Sequence record: OR067838.1
Length of the DNA: 64,000 bases
Direction: 5' to 3' (one strand)
Source: Escherichia phage KKP 3954
Positions 4,886-62,409 of this stretch are shown here, in pieces; position 1 is the first letter of the stretch; every line of letters begins with the position of its first letter. The notes beneath the pieces are model-generated. The model was not told the DNA's origin, searched no databases, and was given only the letters and a program-made list of their open reading frames with translations. Position numbers and translations under genes: made by a program.

Positions 4886-5077
4886 GAATCCGTATCTATA
4901 TAATTGATGAAGACATTGGTGTCCGTTATGATGACGAAAAACGATTCGCACCGATGGGAGGCATATACCCCCAAGTGTTCTAGCAGTTTGTCGTGATTGT
5001 TATATTTATGAAGGTTGTCGTAACTTCCGTAAATTCGAACTCCTTGCAGATATTGACTTCAATGAGGAGGAGGAGTA

Positions 5078-6282: not shown

Positions 6283-7079
6283 ATGTCCGAGAAAATCAGC
6301 CTGAAAAAACGTCAAGAAAACCTTGCTTTCTCTCTGAAAAAGAATAAGAACCTGAACGAAGGTAAGATTGTTCTTCGTGTAGCATGTGCTCTAGATATTT
6401 CTGGTAGTATGCATGGTCTATATACTCGTGGGGTAGTGAGTGATTTTGTAGGTAAACTGCTTCCTTTTGGTATGCTGTTCGACGATAATGAACAAATTGA
6501 CATGTGGGCCTTCAATACGAGTTCTCAAGAGCTTACTCCAGCAACAGCAGACGTTTACGATGACTACGTTGGTAAATGTATGCGTAATGTTCGTATCGGA
6601 GGTGGAACAAATTACGCCCCTGTAATGGCAGATATCTACGATGAGTATTTTGGCACTGTTACCAAATATGTTACCACTAAACAAGTGGTATACAAGAGGA
6701 GGCTCCAAAGAAAGGCTTCTTTAATCGTCTGCTTGGTAAAACTGAAACAGTATCGGTAGAGCGTGAAAAAGTTGTAGCTGTATCTGAACCAGGTGCTGAT
6801 GTTACTCCTGGCGTTGTATTCTTCCAGACAGACGGTGAGAATGGTGATCCTAGTGCTGTTCGTCGTCTTATTGAAGAGAATAAGAATAAGCCTATCTATT
6901 GGTTCATGGTTGGCGTTGGTAATGAGAAGTTCAGCTTCCTGAAAGAACTGGCAAATGCTTATGACAATGTTGGTTTTATTGGCATTAAAGATTTAGACTT
7001 GACAGATTCAGAGCTTTATGACAAACTCTTATCTGAAGAGTTCGGAGAGTGGGTTGTTAAAGTAGGTGCTAAAAAATGA
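6283..7079 (+). CDS. vWA domain protein with TerD-like N-terminal motif; reading frame broken near 6690-6710 (track ORF 6283..6759 continues in another frame to 7079)
   Basis: MIDAS motif DISGSM and GGGTNYAP in first frame; the vWA TDG segment (VVFFQTDGENGD) lies in the downstream frame, which has no start codon of its own until about 6907. Confidence 0.55.
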
Positions 7080-10086: not shown

Positions 10087-10770
10087 ATGGAAAATATTAA
10101 AATCGGAGTGGGTGTTATCACTGTAGGTGTCCGTCCACTTAAAGACTACCTTGTAACAGATCCACATGCAGATTTTCGAGTATTCAACGATCCAGATCGT
10201 AAAGGTGTAGCTTACGCCAGGAATGAACTTATGCACCAGTTTTATGAAGAAGGTTATGATTATTGGTTTATTTTTGACGACGATTGCTACCCAATCATGG
10301 AGGGATGGGAAACATATTTTGTAGATCAAGCTGTCTCTGGAGGATGGGATTTCTTTGGTATGCCGGAGTATTTCAAAGATAAAGTTGTTGGGAGTAAAGG
10401 AGAAGTTATTCTCTGGGAACTTGCAATGTGTCAATTTGCAATGTATTCTCGTGCCGTTGTTGAGAAGATGGGTTATTTCCGCCCTTACACTCACGGCTAT
10501 GGTTTTGAAGATGCTGAATGGGTACACCGTTTGAAAGCTGCTGGTTTGAATCAGGGTATTCAGGCAATACCTTGTCCACTTCGTATCATGGCTTATATCC
10601 ACCCAGACGATGTTTTTGGAAACAATCCTATGCCTTTTGCTAATCTGACAAAAGAAGAGAAAGAAGCTGCTATTGGCATTAACTGGGAAGAATATAAAGC
10701 GTCTTTAGAAGATATTAAAAATGGGAAAATCCGAATTTCTTATGAGGAGGCACTGGCACATGTCAAATAA
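10087..10770 (+). CDS. glycosyltransferase family 2-like protein
   Basis: GT-A features: N-terminal GVGVITVG, AYARNEL, FIFDDDC acidic motif. Confidence 0.55.
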   Translation: MENIKIGVGVITVGVRPLKDYLVTDPHADFRVFNDPDRKGVAYARNELMHQFYEEGYDYWFIFDDDCYPIMEGWETYFVDQAVSGGWDFFGMPEYFKDKVVGSKGEVILWELAMCQFAMYSRAVVEKMGYFRPYTHGYGFEDAEWVHRLKAAGLNQGIQAIPCPLRIMAYIHPDDVFGNNPMPFANLTKEEKEAAIGINWEEYKASLEDIKNGKIRISYEEALAHVK

Positions 10771-11707
10771 AAAATGGACTAAACTGAAAATTGATGCAAA
10801 ACCTCACAGTGGTTGTGATTATCATCGTATTGTTATACCATTTAACAACAATAATTTTCAGCCTAAGAAAGATGTTGTCGTGTTTAACCGTATTCATTCT
10901 AAAGGGGCAGAATATGTTCTGTCCCTGAAACGTCAAGGTGTTAAGATTATTGTAGATTTAGATGATTTCTACCAACTTAATCCAGAACATTATTTAGCAA
11001 GTTTATATGAGTCAAACACTCATGCTATTGTAGCTATGGTTAAGCTTGCCGATGTGGTCATTGTGACTACGGAATATTTGGCATATAAGATCCGTCACTT
11101 AAATAGGAATGTTGTTGTGATCCGAAATGCACTTCCTTTTGATAGCGGACAATTCACTTTGTCAAATGATCGTTCATCCGGTACCCCTGTTGTATGGGCT
11201 GGCGGTGCTAGTCACGAACCCGATTTACGACTAGTCTCTAATACTTTCGATGATGAACTTCTTACTATTGCAGGATATGAAGCATCGCAGAGTATCACGG
11301 GGCAAGAGTGGATTAAGATCCGTAGAAATTTACCAAACGCCAAATATAAAGCTGCTGTAAAAGATTTAGATAATTACATGAGTGTTTACGAAAGTCATGC
11401 TATTGCTATAGCTCCTTTGGTAGACAATGATTTTAATAATTGTAAAAGTAATCTCAAAATCCTTGAAGCTGGGGCAAAAGGTATTCCGATTGTTTGTTCT
11501 AAGGTATTACCTTATTTTAACCCTGTGGATGCTCGCGCTGTTGCTTACGCAGAGAATAAAGCAGAATGGCATTACGAAATTGTTAAACTTCTTCGCAATC
11601 CGAACTATCGGGAAGATCGCGGCTTGTTCTTAGCGGAACATGTTCGAACACATTATAATCTGGCAGATGCAAACGAATTGCGACGCCAGGTTATTGAAAG
11701 CTTGTAG
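10760..11707 (+). CDS. putative glycosyltransferase (GT-B-like), paralog of 11715..12659
   Basis: ATG 10760 after GAGGAGG; shares CDYHRIVIPF, DLDD, WAGG, KSNLKILEAGAKGIP and VRTHY blocks with next gene. Confidence 0.5.
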   Translation: MSNKKWTKLKIDAKPHSGCDYHRIVIPFNNNNFQPKKDVVVFNRIHSKGAEYVLSLKRQGVKIIVDLDDFYQLNPEHYLASLYESNTHAIVAMVKLADVVIVTTEYLAYKIRHLNRNVVVIRNALPFDSGQFTLSNDRSSGTPVVWAGGASHEPDLRLVSNTFDDELLTIAGYEASQSITGQEWIKIRRNLPNAKYKAAVKDLDNYMSVYESHAIAIAPLVDNDFNNCKSNLKILEAGAKGIPIVCSKVLPYFNPVDARAVAYAENKAEWHYEIVKLLRNPNYREDRGLFLAEHVRTHYNLADANELRRQVIESL

Positions 11708-11714
11708 GTGAAGT

Positions 11715-12659
11715 ATGGGACAAATAATTCTTGACAATCGTAACGGAATCAATTATAGTGTCTGCGATTTCCATAGGGTAGTGCTGCCTTACTCAAGGCA
11801 GTTCTCTTCACAACCTAAACACAACGTTTTCGTTTTTAACGGAGTGCCAACAAAAGGTAAAGAGGGCTTTTTAGCCCTTAAAAACCTAGGCTTTAAAATG
11901 GTTATGGATTTGGATGACTCTTTAGTTATTCCAAAAGGACACATGTTAGAAGGTATTTTTGAATCCGGTATTCGTGAACATTTAAAATGGTTTTTAGAGC
12001 ACAGTGATCTTGTTACAACTACGACACCTGCCTTGCAAGTTGAACTTTCACAATACAATGATAATGTGCACATAATCCCTAATGGACTTCCTTATGATGA
12101 AGGTCAATTTGTGTTGACCCGTGATCGCTACTCCAAAACTCCATTAGTCTGGGCTGGAAGTGAAACACATAAACAAGATTTGGCTATCTTACCCGATTTT
12201 GGTAAAGATCTTACAATATGTGGTTTTCGTAGGGATTCTGAAGTTTTAAGTAGTCGTGAATGGTCTTTAATCAGAGAAAATGTAGCACCAACTTGTGTTT
12301 ATGAAGGTGTAAGACCATATGCCAACTACATGGAATCTTACGATGGTCATCAAATCAGTCTTGCACCATTGATCGATAACGTGTTTAATAATGCAAAAAG
12401 CAATCTTAAAATTCTTGAGGCAGGTGCTAAGGGTTTACCTTTAATCTGCTCTCCTCGTGAGAATTATCATACACAAGAGTTTAAAGATTTGTTATTCTTT
12501 GCTGAAACACCTTCCGAGTGGAAAGATATTACGGAATACTTATTAAGTGCTCCCGATGTTTGCATGGAGAAAGGATTAGCATTAGCTAAGTATGTCAGGA
12601 CTCATTATCACATTGATGTGTTGAATGAGCGTCGTAGACTTTTATTTGAGGAGCTATAA
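11715..12659 (+). CDS. putative glycosyltransferase (GT-B-like), paralog of 10760..11707
   Basis: Tandem paralog; KSNLKILEAGAKGLPLICS motif. Confidence 0.5.
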   Translation: MGQIILDNRNGINYSVCDFHRVVLPYSRQFSSQPKHNVFVFNGVPTKGKEGFLALKNLGFKMVMDLDDSLVIPKGHMLEGIFESGIREHLKWFLEHSDLVTTTTPALQVELSQYNDNVHIIPNGLPYDEGQFVLTRDRYSKTPLVWAGSETHKQDLAILPDFGKDLTICGFRRDSEVLSSREWSLIRENVAPTCVYEGVRPYANYMESYDGHQISLAPLIDNVFNNAKSNLKILEAGAKGLPLICSPRENYHTQEFKDLLFFAETPSEWKDITEYLLSAPDVCMEKGLALAKYVRTHYHIDVLNERRRLLFEEL

Positions 12660-15261: not shown

Positions 15262-16056
15262 TTGAGCAAGTTGAACACACTTGATCAATATTACACTAAC
15301 CCCGCTTATGCGGGGTTCTTATGTGATAAGATCAAAGAAATTTTTGGAGAGGAAGCTAACTACGTAGAACCATCTGCGGGAGAAGGAGCTTTCTCTTCTT
15401 GTTTTAAAAACATAACTTCTTTTGATATTGACCCTAAGTTTGAAGATTGTATTGAGGCAGATTTTTTAGCTCAATCTGTTGAGTCTGTTGGTAGTGTAAC
15501 TGCTTTTGTCGGTAATCCTCCATTTGGAAAAAATGCTAGTCTTGCCATTAAATTCTTTAACCATTGTGCTGAAATGCTGGATAACGAAGGTGGTATTTGT
15601 TTTATCTTGCCTCGCACATTTCAAAAAATCTTTTTTGCACACAAACTAAATCCCCATATGCATCTTCTTTACGAAGAAGAATGTCCAAAAGGATCTTTTA
15701 TTCTTCATGGAGAACCTTGGGATGTTCCTTGTGTATTCCAGATATGGATTAAACGCAACGAGAAGCGTTCTCCCGTTGTTTTAGGAGAGAATCGACTATT
15801 CGTATTAGGTAACAGTAAAGACTACGATATAGCCGTTAGGAGAGCGGGAGCAAGTGCAGGTAAAGTGTTATCAGAAGAAGATTCTTTATCTGAAGCATCT
15901 ACCTATTTTTTAAAAGCCTTGACTTCTGATCTTAAAACGCGTATCATTGAGGCTTACCCGTTACTTAAAGCTGAAGCTAGTAAAACTGCGGGAGTAAGAA
16001 GTTTAAGTTTAAAAGAACTTCAGTGGGTTCTGGAGAACATTAGAAAGGAGGAATAG
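15262..16056 (+). CDS. DNA N6-adenine methyltransferase
   Basis: AdoMet motif EPSAGEGAF and catalytic NPPF motif; TTG start after AAGGAGG. Confidence 0.65.
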   Translation: MSKLNTLDQYYTNPAYAGFLCDKIKEIFGEEANYVEPSAGEGAFSSCFKNITSFDIDPKFEDCIEADFLAQSVESVGSVTAFVGNPPFGKNASLAIKFFNHCAEMLDNEGGICFILPRTFQKIFFAHKLNPHMHLLYEEECPKGSFILHGEPWDVPCVFQIWIKRNEKRSPVVLGENRLFVLGNSKDYDIAVRRAGASAGKVLSEEDSLSEASTYFLKALTSDLKTRIIEAYPLLKAEASKTAGVRSLSLKELQWVLENIRKEE

Positions 16057-18653
16057 TGAGTAAGTTTACATGGGATATTGAAGCAAACGGATTGTTGAAT
16101 AATGACACTATTGATTATTTAGCTAGTCCTTATCGTCTCAAAGACACATTTCAAATGCACTGTATTGTCTTAGAGAACCATGAAACAGGAGAAATAGTAG
16201 CTTTCCACGATGGCCCTAAATACATCTTTGATGGGCGTCCTTATGAAGAGTCAGATGGTAAATACACATATGTTCTTAAAGAGTATGTGGCGCAAGATTA
16301 CACACATTTTCAACTAAAAGATTTCCCAGACTTTATTAATCATGAAGGTTATTTTAAAGATAAGCCTGAATATCTGGTTGAAATGGCTGTGGCTCACAAC
16401 GGTATCAACTATGACTGGTTGGCTACAAAACTGTTTTATGGTTTAGATTACAGTGTTAAATATAATACGTGGGGCAAAAATAAGGTAAAACTTATTGACT
16501 CCTTGATTTTGAGTAAAGTGTTAAACCCAGATCGAAAGATTGAGGGCAAATCAGGACATAGTTTGGCAGCACTTTCTCGAAAGGCAGGGGGTGATGTAAA
16601 AATAGATTTCCGTAAAGAGATTCCAGAAGAAGATCGATTTAAGACTTTTGCTGCTGATATGCTTTATTACTGTATCTATGACAACAAAGCCAATACGAGC
16701 GTATATAATTACCTTATGGAAGAATGGGGTGATTATGATAAATGGGAAGGTCCATTTGAACTTGAACAACGTGTAGCAGACATTATTACACGCCAGGAAC
16801 ACCGTGGGTTTGCTTTTAACATGAAGCAAGCAGAAGAGAACCTTGCTTTTTTGGATGCAGAAATGGAGCGTCTTCGTTTACTCGTTGAGCCTATTTTGCC
16901 ACCTAAACCAGCAACAAAAGGTTATCTTAAGGCTTTTATTCCACCTAAGTTGCAAATTAAAAAGAACTTAGAGCCAACTAACCATATGATCAATTTTGCT
17001 AAGAAACATGATGGTCATTTGGAAGAGAGGGATGGAGATTGGTGGTTAGTGATGTTGGGGAAAGAATGGAAACTGCCAGTTGCAGCAGATGAGCCTTTGT
17101 GTGATCCTAATATCCCTGCAACATTGAACGATACTACCCATATTAAAAACTGGCTTGTAGGATTAGGTTGGGTACCGTCTGAATATAAAGATAAAGACTT
17201 GACTCTTAAATCTGGCACCAAGATTAAAAAGAGCGAGGAAGAACTTCAGAAAGGTATTCGAGCTTACGTTGAGCAAACTCTATCTTCTAATTTTTGTCAG
17301 GATCGTTGTGATCATCTGGAGTGCACACCGGAAACCTTGGAGAGGAAGATTCAAGAGCGTATAGCAAAAGGTAAAGGTCGCGGTCTTAAAGTATTGACTA
17401 ACCCATGTTTTACCAAAGGTCAGGAAAAAGAAATTTGTCCTAACCTGCAAGCTTTGGGTGAGAAATTTCCTTATGCTACACAGATTGTAGAATACTTAAC
17501 GTATAAACACCGTAGGAACTCTATTTTAGGTGGTGGTGCCGATTGGGAAGAAGACGAAGAAGATCAAGAATACGATAAAGGTTTCTTAGCCGCAGTAAGG
17601 GCGGATGGTCGTATTCCTACCCCAGCCGCTACATGTGATGCTGCAACCTCTCGTATGAAGCATAGATCTGTAGCTAATATTCCTCGTGTCACATCTTTGT
17701 TTGGATGGGAGATGCGTAACTTGTTTGGTGTAGAGGTTCCTAAATACTTCCAGATTGGCTACGACTTCGACTCTTTGGAAGCAAAAATTGAATCACACTA
17801 CTGTTGGCGGTACGAGCCGGAGCCACACGAATATTGTAACGCTCTGTTGTTAGAGAAACCTAACGATGTTCACACAATGATGGCAAAACGTATCACTGAA
17901 ACTATTGGACGTAAATTTGAACGTAGTCCTGCTAAATCTGTTAAGTATGGTATTACCTATGGTGCACAAGCCGACAAGGTTGCTAAAACAATTGGTAGCG
18001 ATAAGTTTACAGGTCAGTTGGTGTTCGATGCTTTCTGGGAAGCTGCCTTCCCACTGGCACGTCTTAAAGAACGTTTAAACGATTTCTGGGTTAAAACTGG
18101 TAAACAATATGTTTTGGGTATTGACGGTCGTAAGGTTCCTACTCGTTCTGCTCACGCGATTCTTAACTCTTTGTTCCAAAGCGGTGGGGTTATCTGTGCT
18201 AAACGTGCAATGGTTATTTATGACGACATGATCGAAGAAGAAGGGCTAAGTGTTGACTTCTTTAAAGATGACTGGAAGAATAAAGACTTCGTGCAACAAA
18301 TGATTGCATACCACGATGAAGCCCAGCTTGAAGTTTCTCGTAACCTTGTAGAATTCAAATGGTTTTCACCTGAATCATTAGGTTGGAAGAAAGTAGACGA
18401 TCCTGAAGAACAAAAGAAAATTGATAAAGAATGCCTTGCTAAAGTCGAAGAATGGAAGCATAATAAGGAAAAAGAGACAGGGCAAATTTGGGCTAACATT
18501 CATGAATCTCCCAAAGGTGGATGGTTTACAGCCTATAGTCGGGCAGGTGAACTTGCTGCTTTAGCTGTTACTAAGGCTGGAGAATTTTACAATCTTAACG
18601 TTCAGCTTACTGCCGGATATGATGTGGGTAATTCTTGGGCGTCCTGTCACTAG
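16056..18653 (+). CDS. DNA polymerase, family A, with 3'-5' exonuclease domain
   Basis: 865 aa; N-terminal exo motif WDIEANGL; size and context typical of phage PolA; GTG start after AAAGGAGG. Confidence 0.85.
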   Translation: MSKFTWDIEANGLLNNDTIDYLASPYRLKDTFQMHCIVLENHETGEIVAFHDGPKYIFDGRPYEESDGKYTYVLKEYVAQDYTHFQLKDFPDFINHEGYFKDKPEYLVEMAVAHNGINYDWLATKLFYGLDYSVKYNTWGKNKVKLIDSLILSKVLNPDRKIEGKSGHSLAALSRKAGGDVKIDFRKEIPEEDRFKTFAADMLYYCIYDNKANTSVYNYLMEEWGDYDKWEGPFELEQRVADIITRQEHRGFAFNMKQAEENLAFLDAEMERLRLLVEPILPPKPATKGYLKAFIPPKLQIKKNLEPTNHMINFAKKHDGHLEERDGDWWLVMLGKEWKLPVAADEPLCDPNIPATLNDTTHIKNWLVGLGWVPSEYKDKDLTLKSGTKIKKSEEELQKGIRAYVEQTLSSNFCQDRCDHLECTPETLERKIQERIAKGKGRGLKVLTNPCFTKGQEKEICPNLQALGEKFPYATQIVEYLTYKHRRNSILGGGADWEEDEEDQEYDKGFLAAVRADGRIPTPAATCDAATSRMKHRSVANIPRVTSLFGWEMRNLFGVEVPKYFQIGYDFDSLEAKIESHYCWRYEPEPHEYCNALLLEKPNDVHTMMAKRITETIGRKFERSPAKSVKYGITYGAQADKVAKTIGSDKFTGQLVFDAFWEAAFPLARLKERLNDFWVKTGKQYVLGIDGRKVPTRSAHAILNSLFQSGGVICAKRAMVIYDDMIEEEGLSVDFFKDDWKNKDFVQQMIAYHDEAQLEVSRNLVEFKWFSPESLGWKKVDDPEEQKKIDKECLAKVEEWKHNKEKETGQIWANIHESPKGGWFTAYSRAGELAALAVTKAGEFYNLNVQLTAGYDVGNSWASCH

Positions 18654-18671
18654 TTAACTTATTGTTTTATA

Positions 18672-18691
18672 AGGGGCTTCTGCCCCTTTAT
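18672..18691 (+). terminator. rho-independent terminator (AGGGGC-TTCT-GCCCCT then TTTAT)
   Basis: Read directly after polymerase stop. Confidence 0.55.
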
Positions 18692-18701
18692 AGGAGGAGA
18701 T

Positions 18702-18893
18702 ATGCATTACGATTTAGATTGTTTTGGTATGCCTTACCTACCAGATGAATTTGAAGGTGAAGAAGAACGTGAATGGGATGATGGGGATATCCGTTGTTGG
18801 TCTTGTGGTAAAGATATGTCTTACGAACAACATATGCACAATGATGGTTTCTGCATACATTGTTATAATGAAATTGATCTGGAGGAAGATTAA
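18702..18893 (+). CDS. small zinc-ribbon protein
   Basis: ORF track; GGAGGAG RBS; CWSC...CIHC. Confidence 0.45.
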   Translation: MHYDLDCFGMPYLPDEFEGEEEREWDDGDIRCWSCGKDMSYEQHMHNDGFCIHCYNEIDLEED

Positions 18894-19060
18894 TGGGAAA
18901 TGGTATCATGATTTGCTATAAAATTGTGCGTATTGTCGGAGACGAAGTTACCACTCGGTATTTTATGATAGAGTCTCAAGCCGATGAGGTTTACAATGAC
19001 TGGCTTGAAAAAGGTGGATACGATTTTGTATCTAAAGAAACTTTCCGTTTAGAAGTATAA
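18893..19060 (+). CDS. small hypothetical protein (55 aa; below ORF-track cutoff)
   Basis: ATG 18893 overlapping previous stop, GGAGGA RBS 7 nt upstream. Confidence 0.35.
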   Translation: MGNGIMICYKIVRIVGDEVTTRYFMIESQADEVYNDWLEKGGYDFVSKETFRLEV

Positions 19061-19070
19061 GGAGAAAACA

Positions 19071-19289
19071 ATGCGTAAATTAGTGAGCTTTAATGTTTCA
19101 ATTCTTGTTGATGAACAAAATGAAGATGTTATTAAAGGTCTTGCAAATAAGATTGCAGGTGGAATGACGGAAGCTGAAGTGTGGGAAGAATGTGCTCGAC
19201 TTTATGAGGAAGGTGTTATTGAGGTCTTGGGGGATGAGATTAATATGGACGATGTTGTAAAAGTAACTGTGGAGCGTATCAATGACTAA
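19071..19289 (+). CDS. small acidic hypothetical protein
   Basis: ORF track; AAGGAGAAA RBS. Confidence 0.45.
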   Translation: MRKLVSFNVSILVDEQNEDVIKGLANKIAGGMTEAEVWEECARLYEEGVIEVLGDEINMDDVVKVTVERIND

Positions 19290-19875
19290 ATCAAAACAAA
19301 TCAATATTGCCAAAGAGATTCTTACCGTATTAAAGATCGCTGATCCTAATTCTGTCTTGGCTGGCGGTGCTGTTCGTGATTGGCGTATTCTTGATATTGC
19401 TGGACGTGATCTGGATTTCTACACATCCCTTCCTGCACATCGATCAGAAGAGCAAATACAAGAATTGATTGCATCTGCTTTGATGGGAACTAATGTTCGT
19501 AAACTAGGAAACAAAGAGGCTTCTGACAATTATGAGGGTGTTACTGGTCTTAAACACGTTTTTGAGTTTGAACGTGATGGTCAGCTTTGCAACCTTATGA
19601 TTATGGAACCAAGCGTAATGACAACCTTTCTAAATGAGTTTGATCTGTCCATCTGCCAGGCTGCATTTGATGGGAAGGATTGCTATTATTCTAAAGATTT
19701 TGAAACAACCTTGGAAACAGGGATCTGCTTCTTGCACAAAGATGTTAGAGAAGATGCCAAACACGTTATTAAAATTGCTACACGTTTCCCATATCTTCGT
19801 TTTGTGAAAGAGGTTAAGGTTCCACGTCCACCTCAAGTAGATACCAGATTAGAAGAAGATGATATTCCTTGGTAA
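19282..19875 (+). CDS. putative nucleotidyltransferase-fold protein
   Basis: GGAVRDWRILDIAGRDLDF fits the pol-beta superfamily pattern G[GS]...DxD. Confidence 0.45.
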   Translation: MTKSKQINIAKEILTVLKIADPNSVLAGGAVRDWRILDIAGRDLDFYTSLPAHRSEEQIQELIASALMGTNVRKLGNKEASDNYEGVTGLKHVFEFERDGQLCNLMIMEPSVMTTFLNEFDLSICQAAFDGKDCYYSKDFETTLETGICFLHKDVREDAKHVIKIATRFPYLRFVKEVKVPRPPQVDTRLEEDDIPW

Positions 19876-26083: not shown

Positions 26084-28801
26084 TTAGGTTGTTGGCACAT
26101 CTACTACTGGCGTTGGGCGAATAACCGCAGTATTACCTACAGAAACATTACTGGAATCATTAGGTATGGTTTTAATTCTAACTCCAGCACTTGTAGGCGT
26201 TACAATTGGATCTGCAATGTCTATTTTAACTGGGTTAGTCCACGTATCATTATCTTGATAAGGTGCACGAGTAATAACTGTGTCCAAATCTGCTCCACCT
26301 ACGCCAGCACCAGGAATACGGATACGTGTCCCTGCTGACAGAGGGTAATGATACAACCAAGAAGCATTTGTTGCTGTCCCGTTAGGAGTCAAGTTCTGTG
26401 TCAGGAAGGTATCTCCTGCCTGTGTAGCTCGAATACCGAAAGCTGGGATATCTGGAATATATGCCCCACTTGTTGTTACAAGGAAGAACGTATTATCCGC
26501 CTTGACTATCATATCACCTTTGTCAAACTCTTTCCCTGTTGGGAAATGCATTCCATCAATGTTTCGACTAGGATTAGGCTCTAAGTAATAAACTTTGCCC
26601 GTTGTCCCTACAATAGCTCCAATACCACCTGCGATATTGGTATACATATTAGCTTCAACATTACAGTTGACACGATGAATATCCGAGTAACGGCAACGGC
26701 TCCACTGTGGACGACCAGTAACCATCGTCTTGCCATCTGGGTAACAGTTTACGTTAACCATTTCAAGAACAGATTTTTCTCTACGGAAGAATCCATCATA
26801 AAATGTCCCTGGACCAGATTCAGGTTGACCAACACAATCGAAGATATTACAGGTAATGTTAGACATTGAAAGCCAAGAAGCTATACCGAACAACTGCAAT
26901 GCAGCGCAACGAATATTTTCAAAGCTAACTCTGTTTTCATAACCTGGACCAGCGGAAACTCCCGCAAAAACACGCCCAGTTTTGGTGTGAATGTTACGAA
27001 CAGAATAGTTAAAGCATGGATTTGAAGGTCTGCCCTGTGCCGGAACTACCGGATTACCTTCTTCGTCCAGAACTGCGTTAGTTCCCCACTCCAAATAAAT
27101 CATACGGATATTACTTGCAAGTGTGCTACCGTCTGTTTTAGGCTCTCCATAAACACCGTCAATCGTAAAATCTTTACTTCCATACATTACAACTGCGCCA
27201 GTTGCCAAACCTGTCCCAACAGATACAGTCTGGTCTGGATCGCCATGAATGTTTTCGATAGAGATATTACGACCAACTTCTACATGGACAATCTGACGAC
27301 AACGTTTTGCAAAAACGTTACGAATTGTAATATTCTTGCAATATTGATCATCAGGGATTCCGTAACCATATGGTCCTTTACCAGCTACACCGATACCGAT
27401 ACCCCAGTTGGACAGAGGAATAGGAGCGTTAGTCCCATCGATATTAGACAGGTAAATATTCTCAATCACACAACCATCGTCATAATGTTTATTGATGACG
27501 TTCAGTTCTATTGCATCACCTTGCATGTCCATGAAGGTAAGGTTACGGAAGACACCACGTGTTACTGGTTCCCCTGTTCCTTGTTGAAGGATGCCATACA
27601 ACCCGTTTTTAAAAATACAGTTATCAATTTCAAAAATACCTGATATTGGGTTGCCTTGGAATACCAAGCTACCAACTTGACCTGCGCGAGGAGCACCGTC
27701 CCACAAACAATCGAACATGCGCACAGCACCACCCCAATACATAACACGAGAGTTACGGAAAGTTGTGCCTTCTACTGTAGCATTTTGCACACGATAGTCG
27801 CGTTGACCACGGAACACACCCCCACGCAAAGTGATACCTTGAATATCAAAAGAGCTTGTCGTGAAAGTCATATCGCAACCGTAAGCATCGAGAATCTTGC
27901 TTTTCGAAGCTTTTGCTGCTAACAGTGCCGCTTGGAAAGCTGCTTCTGGTGTGGTATATGTTGTTGTGTTGTTAGCAAATTCTGACAAGTAGACAACATC
28001 GAATAAATCGTTGTATGTTCCACCACGAGGGGTTAACAGTCCTTCTGTATTGGTCAGAACCCATGCATTTGGACCTAATCCACCGCTTGTCTCCAATGTA
28101 TCAGAGGCCAAAATACTTTTTGGTAAACTTCCAGCCCAACGATAACGACCAGCACCACGTCCAATCGTCTGATTTTTAGCTGTCAGAGTTACGTTATTAC
28201 CAAAGCTTGTAGGCAAATGAACAAACTGTCCACGTTCAACAGCTAGTGCAGAAAGATCTACAGACCCCCCAGAATAAGTCATTACTCCAGAAACAGACAA
28301 GGATGTTAAAGTTCCTGTGATGTTAGGAGGTAATGTGTAGGAAGACTGTGCTACTGGATCATACAGAGCTTTAATCCCTGTTAACGATTGACCTGCTGTT
28401 GCGTAAGCCACCTCATCATCTAACAAACCATATTTACGAGCAATAGTTTGCAGAGGGACTTTATCCATGCTTTCTGTTAGTTCTTCCGTTTTTGTTTCTA
28501 AACTAACAAGACGGTTCTCTAGATTAGGATCTGTATCTGCTGAAGCTACGATTTTACCAATATAAGCAAAAAGCTTGTTTGGTAGTCCTGTTGCAGGATC
28601 GTGTCCCAAAGGTTCAGATAAGATGATCTTACTATCTTCTATACGGAAAGCTTCTCCCAGAACCTGAATAACACCGTTGATAGTAACAATAGCACTGTCA
28701 AAAATATAAGGAGGACTAATTACTGTTTCATAACCCGTTGCACCAGAATATACCCACGGGGTGACTTCTGTTGCTAATTGTTCTGTTTTCAGTCCCCACA
28801 A
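26084..28801 (-). CDS. tailspike protein with parallel beta-helix (pectate lyase-like) repeats; probably the C-terminal body of a gene whose N-terminus is 28819..29139
   Basis: 905 aa with beta-helix-like repeats (NITIRNVF, NISIENIHGD); TTG start without RBS; frame open upstream into previous ORF. Confidence 0.55.
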   Translation of the reverse strand: MWGLKTEQLATEVTPWVYSGATGYETVISPPYIFDSAIVTINGVIQVLGEAFRIEDSKIILSEPLGHDPATGLPNKLFAYIGKIVASADTDPNLENRLVSLETKTEELTESMDKVPLQTIARKYGLLDDEVAYATAGQSLTGIKALYDPVAQSSYTLPPNITGTLTSLSVSGVMTYSGGSVDLSALAVERGQFVHLPTSFGNNVTLTAKNQTIGRGAGRYRWAGSLPKSILASDTLETSGGLGPNAWVLTNTEGLLTPRGGTYNDLFDVVYLSEFANNTTTYTTPEAAFQAALLAAKASKSKILDAYGCDMTFTTSSFDIQGITLRGGVFRGQRDYRVQNATVEGTTFRNSRVMYWGGAVRMFDCLWDGAPRAGQVGSLVFQGNPISGIFEIDNCIFKNGLYGILQQGTGEPVTRGVFRNLTFMDMQGDAIELNVINKHYDDGCVIENIYLSNIDGTNAPIPLSNWGIGIGVAGKGPYGYGIPDDQYCKNITIRNVFAKRCRQIVHVEVGRNISIENIHGDPDQTVSVGTGLATGAVVMYGSKDFTIDGVYGEPKTDGSTLASNIRMIYLEWGTNAVLDEEGNPVVPAQGRPSNPCFNYSVRNIHTKTGRVFAGVSAGPGYENRVSFENIRCAALQLFGIASWLSMSNITCNIFDCVGQPESGPGTFYDGFFRREKSVLEMVNVNCYPDGKTMVTGRPQWSRCRYSDIHRVNCNVEANMYTNIAGGIGAIVGTTGKVYYLEPNPSRNIDGMHFPTGKEFDKGDMIVKADNTFFLVTTSGAYIPDIPAFGIRATQAGDTFLTQNLTPNGTATNASWLYHYPLSAGTRIRIPGAGVGGADLDTVITRAPYQDNDTWTNPVKIDIADPIVTPTSAGVRIKTIPNDSSNVSVGNTAVIRPTPVVDVPTT

Positions 28802-28818
28802 TACCCAGTTATTATCCC

Positions 28819-29139
28819 CTACTGGAGAATACCTTGCATAGGGATTGGGTTTACCAATGTAGCATTAGGAGCATAATAATAACCGCTCAATACCCCATTC
28901 TGGAAATAACGCAGTTGGTTAAAAACCGTTTCATTTGTGCCTTGCGCCCAATCCAATGGACTTTTAAAGAAAAAGTTGTCAACAAGGGCTTTTCTCAGGG
29001 TTGGTATCAACCCTGATTCTGTTTCAATACTCTCTGTAGCACTTCCATTAATAACATCATGGAGTTGGTTAGACGAGAAAATAACCAGATCTACGCCCTG
29101 TTCAAGAGACGTTGCTGGATATGTTGGGAATGTTGCCAT
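28819..29139 (-). CDS. tailspike N-terminal domain (likely same gene as 26084..28801, separated by a -1 frame break)
   Basis: ATG with AAGGGG RBS; downstream ORF frame is open from 28862. Confidence 0.5.
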   Translation of the reverse strand: MATFPTYPATSLEQGVDLVIFSSNQLHDVINGSATESIETESGLIPTLRKALVDNFFFKSPLDWAQGTNETVFNQLRYFQNGVLSGYYYAPNATLVNPIPMQGILQ

Positions 29140-33820: not shown

Positions 33821-36217
33821 TTAGTCGGTTATGCTTGATATCGCTGCATACTGGTTCACGGATACAGGAGTTGCGTCTATTCTAGTGTTTCTCGATGATG
33901 ACCTAACCATCAGAAACACCATAGCGCGTCCAGATCCGTCAACATACTTGAGTATCCCTGTTGTATTTGCGGATATTTGTTGTAGGAATATCTGTCCTTG
34001 CGTTGTCGATGTAATAACAGCCGGAGTAGACACCACGGCTGAACCGATTATAAATACACTTATTTTTCCGGATAATTGATACAAAAGCGCCGCAGTTCCA
34101 GAAAACGTACCGGATGCCAATGTAACATTTATATCCCCCGACAACCGGATATACGCGCTTGGTGATGCCGTTATTGTTACGGATGAAGCGTTTATACGAA
34201 ACCCTTTATAACTGGTTACGACTCTGGTAAGTGAGACAGACCCTGTTACATTTATAACGAAGTCGCCGCGAAAACCACCTTTTTGTCTAACGATGTTTAC
34301 AATTTCTATCGCCCGCTCCAGAGATGCTACAGCCCTACCAGAAACAAATCCGGAGTTCTCATCGTTACCAGTTGCAGGGTTAACAAAGATTTCTCTCGTG
34401 AAATCCATCCCTAAATAGTTTACAGCAGACCAGTTACCAATACTTCCATAATCAGTAATAGCAGGGCTTACATTCTCTACGCGCAATGGTGCATTAGTGA
34501 ATGTTCCACCAACCATCCCATTAGAGAACCCTCCGACTGGGGGCATACCACGAGCAATAACTTTACGCTCAGTACCATCTTGACCACAGAAGAAGAACCC
34601 ATAGGAAAGACAGGTATAGTTAATTTGCGACCAGTTATCCAAATCTATATAACTGTTAGCTATCACAAAATTGTGACGCATAATCATATTGCCGCCTACA
34701 TCTTCTACGTGCGGCTTTCGTAAGTGAATGTCTGTATCGTTAAATGCGAACGCCTGCCTCCACCATTCAACGACAGGTTCGTCGATAACAAAATCACGAA
34801 CTGTATCGCAAGTTATACCAGTATTCTGATTTTTTCCTTCAGCAGTCCATGCCGTTGCTGGATAGACTAATTCTGGATTGTCGGCGTTAGCACCAACTCG
34901 TGCAACATAAGGATTGGTTATACGTAGCCCGGCGTTTGCCTTATAAAGATGGATACCCTGACGCATAGCCAGCACTTTAGGGGAACGGAAATCAGCACCC
35001 CATGACCATCTAAAATACATTCCTAACATGGGTGCTGATACCAGATTACCGCCACGTTCTGTGATTCCTATACTGGTTTTTGTACCTTTACATCCAGGGG
35101 ACATTGAGAAGTTAAGACCTATCTTGACACCGCCAGAACATGCTACTGATAGGTCGAATAGGAATCCATCTGACATCGTGATATAACCGTTCACATCGGT
35201 AATATCGTTGTCAGGCGTGCCGATTAAAGCGCCAGTTTTCCTCACATAAGAAATACCTGACAACTCAAAAACAACTGGTTCTGTAGCAGCGGTGTTTAAA
35301 TCCGTCGGAGCATAATAAAAACCAACTGGTATTTGTCTGTTGAAATAGGTCTGCGCACCAACCTGATCGTAATGTACATGACGCATAAGCAGGAGCGGAA
35401 CAGCAGACTCTACACGAGAAGTAAACACCACATGAACTGGTTTAAGGCTATATTTATATGCCTCCAAAGCTGTAGCGTTGGCGTAAGATGATGCCATACC
35501 CGCTGTGATATAAGAGTTCAGAGCGTTGATTTTTTCTGTGCCTGTTCCGGCGAAATCATCAACGTAAAGCTCATTAATCAGTTTCGCATACAATCCATTC
35601 ACGATTGGCATCGGCGTGACTTCGGAAACAATCTCCCATCTGGATCCACCAGTTGACACTTTCTGACCCAGAATAAGAGTTGCATCAGCAGCCATAGCCT
35701 GGATATTACTAAAGCCGTGCACATAACGATCTCCACCCTCACTAGAGATGTTTTCTTTAAGAGATGCATCGCCAACACTAACCCACGCTCCTAATTTAAC
35801 CTCACCTGTGCTATCTGGAGTTGAACCAGTTGGAACTATTTTTGGTAGGTCACTATCCCAAGTGTAGCACTGACCACCTGCAATATACCAAACAGCATCA
35901 GTAGATGTGGATACAGTAGCCCCCTCTTCAAAACTACCATCAACAAGTGTTAACCCCGCTTCAGCAAGACTACGACGCCACTGTTCACGATCATTAAGAA
36001 GATTGTTATTCAACTCTTCCTGAACAGTATTACCATTTGAGGATTGTATTAAATCTGCTCCATCTGTATCTTTCAACTGGGTGGCTAAAACCACCCCAGT
36101 GTCAGTAAGAAAGTTGGAAACTGTGCTTTTAACAGTTTTATCAGGTTGATCTAAAACCAGGTAATCTGAACCATTAACTTTTGATGTTTCGGGTAAATTA
36201 GTAATTGTAGTTGACAT
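33821..36217 (-). CDS. tailspike/tail fiber protein
   Basis: 798 aa; GGAG RBS; Gly/Ser/Thr-rich body consistent with a beta-structure enzyme domain. Confidence 0.55.
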   Translation of the reverse strand: MSTTITNLPETSKVNGSDYLVLDQPDKTVKSTVSNFLTDTGVVLATQLKDTDGADLIQSSNGNTVQEELNNNLLNDREQWRRSLAEAGLTLVDGSFEEGATVSTSTDAVWYIAGGQCYTWDSDLPKIVPTGSTPDSTGEVKLGAWVSVGDASLKENISSEGGDRYVHGFSNIQAMAADATLILGQKVSTGGSRWEIVSEVTPMPIVNGLYAKLINELYVDDFAGTGTEKINALNSYITAGMASSYANATALEAYKYSLKPVHVVFTSRVESAVPLLLMRHVHYDQVGAQTYFNRQIPVGFYYAPTDLNTAATEPVVFELSGISYVRKTGALIGTPDNDITDVNGYITMSDGFLFDLSVACSGGVKIGLNFSMSPGCKGTKTSIGITERGGNLVSAPMLGMYFRWSWGADFRSPKVLAMRQGIHLYKANAGLRITNPYVARVGANADNPELVYPATAWTAEGKNQNTGITCDTVRDFVIDEPVVEWWRQAFAFNDTDIHLRKPHVEDVGGNMIMRHNFVIANSYIDLDNWSQINYTCLSYGFFFCGQDGTERKVIARGMPPVGGFSNGMVGGTFTNAPLRVENVSPAITDYGSIGNWSAVNYLGMDFTREIFVNPATGNDENSGFVSGRAVASLERAIEIVNIVRQKGGFRGDFVINVTGSVSLTRVVTSYKGFRINASSVTITASPSAYIRLSGDINVTLASGTFSGTAALLYQLSGKISVFIIGSAVVSTPAVITSTTQGQIFLQQISANTTGILKYVDGSGRAMVFLMVRSSSRNTRIDATPVSVNQYAAISSITD

Positions 36218-38387: not shown

Positions 38388-39305
38388 TTACTCGGTAACG
38401 TCCACACTAATGTTTGCCATTGTCAAAACAGTAAGTGCAGGAATATTGCTCGAATCCAAAACAGGTAATGCATTTTGGGGATTAAGTTTTTTGTATAAAG
38501 CATACAACCCAAAACCACGTAACAACTCTCCAGCGTGGAAGCCAAAGAAGACTCCGTTATCACTATCTGGTCTAGGAGCGGAACTCCAACAGCCATTCAT
38601 AACATGATTAGGACCAAGAACAATATAATTTTCCTGAATAAGTTCAAAACAGCGGTCTGCTACTATTTTAATGTTAGGAATTTCTGAATCATACCCAGCC
38701 ATCCCCATTATAGCACATCCTGCCATAAAGAGCGCAGACATGTGACTTGTAAAGTCATCTACAGGTGCTGCCACTTCTCCGTTGGGATAAAATATTGTTG
38801 GTGTTCTTCCTTCGTTGTTGTCTTGGAACCACTTTAGATAGTTGATCCAGTTTTTACAAACTGTTAAAAGTTTTTCAGGAACTTCTGCCCCTCGTTGTTT
38901 CAGTTCGTATACTGTATGACACGCACAGAAGAATGCTCGTGCTTCATAACCATCCCAAGCTTTATCGTTCCAATGATACATTGTGAACTCATTCTTGTTT
39001 CCGTATTTATGAGCATCCCAACGATCCCAAACATAAGCTTGTGCCATTGGTCCAGGCATCACAGGGGCAAACTTATTATAAAACCACATTTGTGAATCAT
39101 ATAAAAAGTCTATACTGTTGTTCATACGAACCCAATCAATATCTCTCCCTTTAAAACAATATAAGGATGGGTATTGATAACCTGGGTAAGGAATACCACG
39201 CCAACCGTCATATAAGGCTGTGTTAGGATCACTGATATTGGAAAATGGAATGATTCCTGGAGTATAATTCAAACTGTTAAGTTTGTAGTCCAGTATTGTA
39301 TACAA
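38388..39305 (-). CDS. hypothetical protein (TTG start, no RBS; frame open upstream into 39269..41266)
   Basis: ORF track; 37-nt overlap with upstream gene. Confidence 0.45.
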   Translation of the reverse strand: MYTILDYKLNSLNYTPGIIPFSNISDPNTALYDGWRGIPYPGYQYPSLYCFKGRDIDWVRMNNSIDFLYDSQMWFYNKFAPVMPGPMAQAYVWDRWDAHKYGNKNEFTMYHWNDKAWDGYEARAFFCACHTVYELKQRGAEVPEKLLTVCKNWINYLKWFQDNNEGRTPTIFYPNGEVAAPVDDFTSHMSALFMAGCAIMGMAGYDSEIPNIKIVADRCFELIQENYIVLGPNHVMNGCWSSAPRPDSDNGVFFGFHAGELLRGFGLYALYKKLNPQNALPVLDSSNIPALTVLTMANISVDVTE

Positions 39306-44120: not shown

Positions 44121-44535
44121 TTACGCCTGATTAGGTTTGTTATCAATATAAACCAATACAAAACGTTTATCTCGACCTGTAGTTGTATACCCAGGACGAC
44201 CATTAATCTTAACTGTATCTACTATATACAATTGACCATCTGGCACACTTTCAAGATATTTATAAGGTTTAAGAAGATCTAAACCATTTGTAACTTTGAA
44301 ACTTATACTTGGATCATCTCCAGATAATCCTATCTGACATTGCCAAGACTCGTCCCTAGTGTTCCACCTTAAACGAATGTCATAATCAACTCCATCCAAT
44401 GTAACTGTATATGTTTGATCAGGTATACTCTTCAGTTTTCAGATACCATGCAAAATAAGTAGAATGGTCCTCCAGATAAACTGCACTGTAGCCTGTATTA
44501 CTTGTAGACCTTGTTGTTTTAGAATAAGTTGTCAC
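44121..44535 (-). CDS. hypothetical tail protein; track ORF 44121..44399 (TTG, no RBS) plus probable N-terminal extension from GTG 44535 (RBS GGAGG), joined by a +1 frame break at a T4 run
   Basis: GTG 6 nt after GGAGG; downstream frame open across junction; break at plus 44436-44439. Confidence 0.4.
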
Positions 44536-53973: not shown

Positions 53974-54117
53974 GGTTGCTGTTTTAACCAGGTTAACTTC
54001 ACGTATACACAGTGTCCAAGGTCAGAGCTAAACACTCCACCCAGAACCAGGTGTCCGAATTCCTGGCGAGAGTTAGATAAAGTAATTCCTTTAGCCATTT
54101 AATTTAATCTCCTAAGA

Positions 54118-61290: not shown

Positions 61291-61367
61291 TGGTCGGAAT
61301 TGCAGGATTCGAACCTGCGACCCTACGCTCCCAAAGCGTATGCTCTACCAAACTGAGCTAAATTCCG
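61291..61367 (-). tRNA. tRNA-Pro (anticodon TGG)
   Basis: Manual cloverleaf: acceptor CGGAATT/AATTCCG, loop TTTGGGA, T-arm GCAGG-TTCGAAT-CCTGC. Confidence 0.7.
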
Positions 61368-62278: not shown

Positions 62279-62409
62279 TAAATACTAATATTTAAATTCT
62301 TTTTAAAATAGCCAGTGTTCGCACCACTAACTATGAGTTATCGGTAAGATGGTGGGGGGCTATCTTCCGAAAGTTTACTCTATTAAAGTAAGCTACATTA
62401 AAAAGAACT

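Follow-up and report, generated by a model that had tools for sequence, protein, structure and literature searches.

In the annotated phAPEC8-like phages (Phapecoctavirus, Stephanstirmvirinae) examined here, the colanidase-type tailspike is encoded by a single gene. One CDS of 3054 nt, specifying 1017 aa, is annotated in ESCO13, Ro121c4YLVW, DE16, EF1-1, 10C3, SKA64 and phAPEC8, under the names 'colanic acid-degrading protein' or 'tail spike protein', and phiWec190, at 77% nucleotide identity, likewise carries one CDS, of 1016 aa. In phAPEC8 the product is gp178 (AFU62749.1, 'putative colanic acid-degrading protein / tail spike protein', 1017 aa). The C-terminal part of the protein is homologous to gp150 of phage phi92 (PDB 6e0v, 6e0w), residues 426-1000 of the ESCO13 ortholog matching 6e0v with E=4e-80 and aligning with gp150 chain residues 95-623.

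Two other described systems are relevant to a gene that is found in two frames. In programmed -1 frameshifting of the kind used by the lambda G/GT-type tail genes and by dnaX, a short overlap links an ORF in frame 0 to one in frame -1. In nanopore sequencing, miscalls of A/G and C/T within motifs that are reverse complements of each other arise from DNA methylation, and they are carried over into assemblies built from such reads alone (Lohde et al. 2024, PMC11610573; bioRxiv 10.64898/2026.01.14.699587). The typical motif-linked error described in these two sources is a substitution, not a 2-nt insertion.

Here we examine a stretch of 64,000 nt (the window) from Escherichia phage KKP 3954 (record OR067838.1), to which it has exact protein matches (WLW41404.1, WLW41405.1 and WLW41413.1), and in which the tailspike is deposited as two proteins.

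The tailspike and its interruption

The tailspike region of the window is 96-98.6% identical to about 60 Phapecoctavirus genomes, and the gene is a single intact ORF in all nine of the relatives that were aligned. It resembles phAPEC8 gp178 and the other Phapecoctavirus orthologs in locus, gene order and length, with 97.5-98.6% nucleotide identity and, after repair, differences at 2 of 1017 residues. However, the orthologs are single ORFs. What sets the window apart is an insertion of 2 nt, private to it, at codon 104, together with two Thr-to-Ile changes, and each of the three lies at GTAC. The features of the locus are as follows.

29139..28819, minus strand: ORF1, 106 aa, with an ATG start, AAGGGG 7 nt 5' of the ATG and a TAG stop at 28821-28819; it comprises tailspike residues 1-103, three out-of-frame residues and the TAG, and is deposited as WLW41405.1
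28801..26084, minus strand: ORF2, 905 aa, with a TTG start; tailspike residues 113-1017, deposited as WLW41404.1
28802..28864, minus strand: open stretch of the downstream frame upstream of the TTG, bounded by a TAA at 28867-28865
28828..28829, minus strand: insertion of TT (AA on the plus strand), GGTA[TT]CTCC where relatives read GGTACTCC or GGGACTCC
27636..27639, gene on minus strand: T501I site, ancestrally GTAC, plus strand now ATAC, coding change ACT to ATT; GTAC is kept in three relatives
27615..27618, gene on minus strand: T508I site, ancestrally GTAC, plus strand now ATAC
29139..26084 without the two bases 28829-28828, minus strand: full gene model, predicted colanidase-type tailspike of 1017 aa

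The two ORFs are separated by 17 nt (28818..28802), and the frame of ORF2 is -1 relative to that of ORF1, which equals a +2 insertion. An earlier note, made from the DNA alone, had described this spacing and the -1 break, together with the ATG and ribosome-binding site of ORF1, and all of these were confirmed. It had also stated that the TTG of ORF2 lacks a ribosome-binding site, and indeed the nearest G-rich stretch, AGGGGA, lies at an abnormal spacing of 13-18 nt upstream. Similarly, the frame of ORF2 is open upstream of the TTG, as had been claimed, but the limit is at 28864 rather than 28862. The proposal of one gene of about 1010 aa, broken by an indel or a recoding event, held for the single gene and for the indel, which is the private 2-nt insertion; recoding was not borne out, and the length in intact orthologs is 1017 aa. 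The break had further been placed between the N-terminal and beta-helix parts. This was wrong: its position, residue 103/104, is within the anchor region at the N-terminus, about 320 residues upstream of the beta-helix/catalytic part. Finally, comparison with orthologs had been named beforehand as the test that could overturn the one-gene model, and all of the annotated relatives examined, including phiWec190, proved to have one CDS, with the two-gene layout seen in none.

Coding continuity across the break is clear. Residues 1-103 of the ortholog query match ORF1 at 100% identity, and residues 104-1017 align to window positions 28828 down to 26087 at 99.7%. From 28827 downward, ahead of the TTG, the downstream frame encodes PVGDNNWV, which is conserved in the intact protein, and the GGG/GGA and AAT/AAC differences from relatives within 28802..28864 are synonymous in this frame. 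Once the TT had been deleted in silico, 1017 codons formed one uninterrupted ORF. Compared with the proteins of Ro121c4YLVW, DE16, 10C3, SKA64 and phAPEC8, the repaired product has only two differences, T501I and T508I, with DNA differences of about 1.4-2.5%, and it differs from the ESCO13 ortholog at 3 of 1017 residues. The single-frame product of 1017 aa would have a mass of about 110 kDa.

The domain organization also crosses the break. In the intact ortholog the N-terminal anchor region consists of matches to phrog_4549 (residues 9-114) and phrog_2710 (residues 122-200); in ORF1 the phrog_4549 match stops at residue 102 (9-102), and the profile therefore spans the break. PF18668 (the TSP1/Gp66-type tailspike N-domain) matches ORF2 residues 190-249, and the CBA120/G7C-type tailspike N-domains in the PDB also match the ortholog. 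In the deposited sequence the anchor ends prematurely at residue 103, whereas anchor and N-domain are on one polypeptide in all of the relatives examined. Further downstream, phrog_6117 ('colanic acid degradation') matches ORF2 residues 74-885 with E=4e-281. We thus predict that the protein is a colanidase tailspike of the Phapecoctavirus/phi92 gp150 type, its putative colanic acid depolymerase activity being suggested by the annotation names and by the homology to gp150. In contrast to phi92 gp150, the window protein has about 425 extra N-terminal residues, containing the phrog_4549 and phrog_2710 anchor and the PF18668 N-domain.

The window contains another tailspike, at 33821..36217 on the minus strand (798 aa). 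Its first 154 or so residues are 89.6% identical to the spike that Ro121c4YLVW has at this position, and the remainder of the protein does not align with it. Its exact protein is a singleton cluster in a collection of 15 billion proteins. The spikes at this position in SKA64 and phAPEC8 are different again (annotated as GDSL-lipase-like and endo-N-acetylneuraminidase-like), and the gene is therefore a swapped receptor-binding module.

The inserted dinucleotide and other frame breaks

At the break the window reads CAAGGTA[TT]CTCCAG, as against CAAGG(T/G)ACTCCAG in nine of nine aligned relatives. The locally closest relatives, 10C3 and SKA64, read GGTACTCC, and the insertion is thus placed inside a GTAC site. 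It is private to this record. In a phage collection where 70 records matched, the KKP 3954 record not being among them, a 66-nt query around the break aligned to a 64-nt span in all 60 of the records listed, and none reached 95% identity; the insertion is therefore absent from the phage records listed. Furthermore, the exact inserted form had no match in IMG/VR, GTDB genomes or JGI metagenomes, no insertion-bearing sequence was present among complete E. coli genomes, and the ORF1 protein had no entry in a look-up of encoding contigs.

The tailspike is not the only interrupted gene. When the whole window was compared with Ro121c4YLVW, and each break also checked against SKA64 and phAPEC8, eight ORFs that are intact in relatives were found to be frame-broken, each break lying no more than 3 nt from a GTAC or in a homopolymer.

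Near 4968: 65-aa hypothetical protein, 1-nt deletion adjoining a C run
6689-6690: 264-aa vWA/TerF-like protein, TA insertion inside GTAC
28828: tailspike, TT insertion inside GTAC
39299-39300: 958-aa structural/fibre (baseplate/fibre) protein, TA insertion inside GTAC
44424: 137-aa protein, net +1 at GGGTAC
47052: tape measure protein, T insertion within a T run
49748: tail sheath, G insertion adjoining GGTACC
54004-54005: head decoration protein, TA insertion inside GTAC

At three of these breaks (6689, 39299 and 54004) the TA insertion turns GTAC into GTATAC, and irregular net +1 changes adjoin GTAC at 44424, 48706 and 49748. Over the window as a whole, 8 of 17 indels lie within 3 nt of GTAC (p about 6e-13), and the remainder are mostly in or beside short homopolymer runs. 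Essential genes are broken among these. As frameshifts early in the tail sheath and tape measure genes could not be survived by a phage that was propagated, the GTAC-linked and homopolymer-linked indels here must be errors, and because the tailspike insertion belongs to the GTAC-linked class, it too is most likely a consensus error.

The same comparison with Ro121c4YLVW showed dense substitutions and compensating 1-nt indels in the tRNA cluster, at 61300-61330 and 62355-62370, which suggests that these slots hold different tRNA genes or alleles.

Substitutions at GTAC sites

The same motif is affected by substitution. GTAC is specifically affected: there are 71 such sites in the homologous 67.5 kb of Ro121c4YLVW but 26 in the window, and for the other 4-mer palindromes the two sequences have about equal numbers. 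When 52 GTAC sites were aligned, the motif was unchanged at 17, had become ATAC at 20 and GTAT, which is the equivalent change of the opposite strand, at 6, and was expanded to GTATAC at 3. Thus, 26 of 35 altered sites read ATAC or GTAT, in which an outermost base of the palindrome has undergone a transition (purine to purine or pyrimidine to pyrimidine). Where GTAC is conserved in Ro121c4YLVW, SKA64 and phAPEC8, the window alone is altered at 21 of 31 sites, or about two thirds. The rate of private change is 15% per nt within conserved GTAC and 1.0% elsewhere, a 15-fold difference, and the private branch of the window is of ordinary length (472 private substitutions). Examples of the privately altered sites are as follows.

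3725, 8410, 21393, 21564, 22017, 23172, 23604, 24596, 27615, 27636, 29159, 30049, 30647, 33435, 33543, 45681, 57351 and 58680: ATAC or GTAT in the window only

Purifying selection is not filtering these changes. Of the coding substitutions within GTAC, 15 are nonsynonymous and 14 synonymous, the figures elsewhere being 132 and 959 (Fisher p=4.5e-7). The nonsynonymous ones mostly replace Thr by Ile or Met through a change at codon position 2. Where GTAC is naturally polymorphic among relatives, the changes fall at varied positions (GCAC, GTGC, GGAC, CTAC), unlike the uniform outer-base transitions of the window. There is also a real avoidance of GTAC in the genus, independent of any artefact. 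Under a Markov model, GTAC is under-represented in the clean relative Ro121c4YLVW (O/E 0.33) as well as in the window (O/E 0.13), and it is the most avoided of the 4-mer palindromes tested, with GATC, TGCA and AGCT at about 0.93-0.96 in that relative.

Explanations for the broken frame

We consider that the tailspike gene is intact in the phage and that the break in its frame arose as an error of basecalling or consensus in the assembly as deposited, with a probability of about 0.82. Two spurious bases would have been called inside GTAC, so that GGTACTCC became GGTATTCTCC, and similar miscalls would have affected about two thirds of the conserved GTAC sites in this record, ATAC or GTAT being the usual outcome and GTATAC the outcome at three. 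Native-DNA nanopore reads, an assembly with no short-read polishing and a modification at GTAC would together give such a pattern. The platform was probably nanopore, judging from other projects of the same laboratory, and base modification at GTAC was probably the trigger. The KKP laboratory's papers of 2023 and 2024, on other phages, describe the Rapid Barcoding kit on native DNA, GridION, Guppy 6.3.8 and Flye 2.8.1, and their text mentions no Illumina use. A literature search returned no paper on KKP 3954 itself and none linking Phapecoctavirus to GTAC.

The pattern is consistent with a motif-linked error in several respects. The discrepancies are concentrated at one short palindromic motif of the methylation type, the miscalls exchange purine for purine or pyrimidine for pyrimidine at reverse-complement positions, and coding constraint is ignored, alongside gene-breaking homopolymer indels. 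With published methylation-induced nanopore errors (PMC11610573; bioRxiv 10.64898/2026.01.14.699587) the window shares A/G or C/T transitions in a reverse-complement pair (here RTAC/GTAY), the involvement of only some instances of the motif, and a SNP-like appearance in the assembly. However, it differs from them in that the motif is GTAC and in that 2-nt insertions occur inside the motif besides substitutions. Two counterpoints apply. GTAC is avoided across the genus, as the O/E of 0.33 in Ro121c4YLVW indicates, so some real loss of GTAC does occur in the lineage. In addition, some of the GTAC changes in the window could be real, because its private branch has an ordinary length.

If the insertion were real, the tailspike would be a pseudogene, or else would be made as a free 106-aa anchor fragment and a C-terminal enzyme of about 905 aa, through reinitiation at the TTG 17 nt past the stop, a state that might be tolerable given several alternative spikes and fibres. 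We regard this as unlikely. The insertion does stand in the deposited sequence, where two proteins are annotated, the TTG is close behind the stop codon of ORF1, and the window has several other fibre or spike genes, any one of which might be dispensable on a laboratory host. However, the 905-aa ORF shows no decay: its downstream codons are all intact, and every difference is synonymous except at the two residues that, after repair, distinguish it from five relatives, and both of these are at GTAC. The lesion is found in no independent isolate and in no other contig searched. The same class of lesion hits genes annotated in relatives as tail sheath, tape measure and baseplate, which should be essential.

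It is very improbable, in our view, that the GTAC changes are real and represent escape from a GTAC-specific restriction. Transitions would then have arisen at methylated cytosine, while G^TAC cleavage, fill-in and religation would have given GTATAC, and the tailspike break would be one such scar, leaving the anchor peptide and the enzyme as separate, free products. Filling in of a 5'-TA overhang, as left by cuts of the Csp6I/CviQI type, is expected to yield GTATAC; the avoidance of GTAC in the genus, stronger still in the window, and the near-uniformity of the outer-base transitions would also suit this explanation. However, the tailspike scar reads GTATTC, not GTATAC, and the net +1 indels beside GTAC at 44424, 48706 and 49748 follow no regular form. 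One in two coding substitutions alters the protein, exchanging Thr for Ile or Met, and natural polymorphisms at GTAC vary in position where those of the window do not. Furthermore, the sheath and tape measure frameshifts would be lethal, and the loss of single sites out of dozens would presumably bring almost no selective benefit. Evolution under GTAC avoidance was rejected as the main cause of the substitutions because the changes are biased towards nonsynonymous ones, fall at a uniform position and are linked to lethal frameshifts.

The remaining explanations can be set aside. Programmed -1 ribosomal frameshifting, or some other recoding event joining ORF1 and ORF2, has a negligible probability. 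Frames 0 and -1 do overlap over about 45 nt (28864-28819), and there is one formal X_XXY_YYZ heptamer, A_AAC_CCA at 28852-28846. However, no slippery sequence had been evident to the earlier note, and the formal heptamer is not conserved, five of nine relatives reading GTTAACCC; a shift there would replace about nine conserved residues; and CCC is not known to be a slippery YYY triplet. Folding of 28850-28700 revealed no stimulatory RNA structure (z=-1.17, with 27 of 200 shuffles folding at least as well). Unlike the lambda G/GT-type genes and dnaX, then, the window has neither a conserved slippery heptamer nor a stimulatory structure, and its two-frame arrangement is conserved in no relative examined. 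The relatives encode the protein in a single frame, with no shift needed, which effectively refutes recoding. The idea that a small N-terminal protein and a tailspike are encoded separately, each from a start of its own, deserves hardly any credence: the source record does annotate two proteins, and ORF1 does have an ATG and a ribosome-binding site, but it is refuted by the annotated relatives examined, all of which, even at 77% nucleotide identity, have one CDS of 1016-1017 aa, while ORF2 has no ribosome-binding site at normal spacing, conserved coding continues 5' of its TTG, and the phrog_4549 profile crosses the junction.

Returning to an error in the deposited consensus, the GTAC changes, if artefactual, possibly reveal a real GTAC-specific modification of the DNA, which is more likely than a real shedding of GTAC sites. 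A candidate source is the phage's own orphan N6-adenine methyltransferase-like gene.

15262..16056, plus strand: methyltransferase-like ORF, 264 aa, directly upstream of the DNA polymerase gene, with the motifs EPSAGEGAF and NPPF

The product is 99.6% identical to the SKA64 'putative DNA N6-adenine methyltransferase'. Searches of Pfam, NCBIfam and the PDB gave no useful match to it, and the only PHROG matches were phrog_5172 (unknown function) and, weakly, phrog_799 ('DNA methyltransferase'). In the same part of the window, the DNA polymerase (16056..18653, plus strand) has 865 aa, as in SKA64 and phAPEC8, compared with 1077 aa in Ro121c4YLVW (16542..19775 of its sequence), where residues 551-794 are without a counterpart in the window and form an in-frame insertion, possibly an intein or homing element. 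Two adjacent paralogues of about 315 aa (10760..12656, plus strand; 41% identity) lie just upstream of the primase/helicase gene, in a run of four genes annotated in SKA64 as glycosyltransferases.

In summary, at least eight genes are wrongly shown as split in the annotation of the record, and in the window alone the record contains a dozen false Thr-to-Ile or Thr-to-Met substitutions, some of them in receptor-binding proteins. These false changes would mislead comparisons of host range or of depolymerases, and they amount to a quality warning for the record. The biological weight of the split itself is small, as the tailspike is an ordinary, well-conserved Phapecoctavirus colanidase spike, and the error signature hints at a modification of virion DNA at GTAC.
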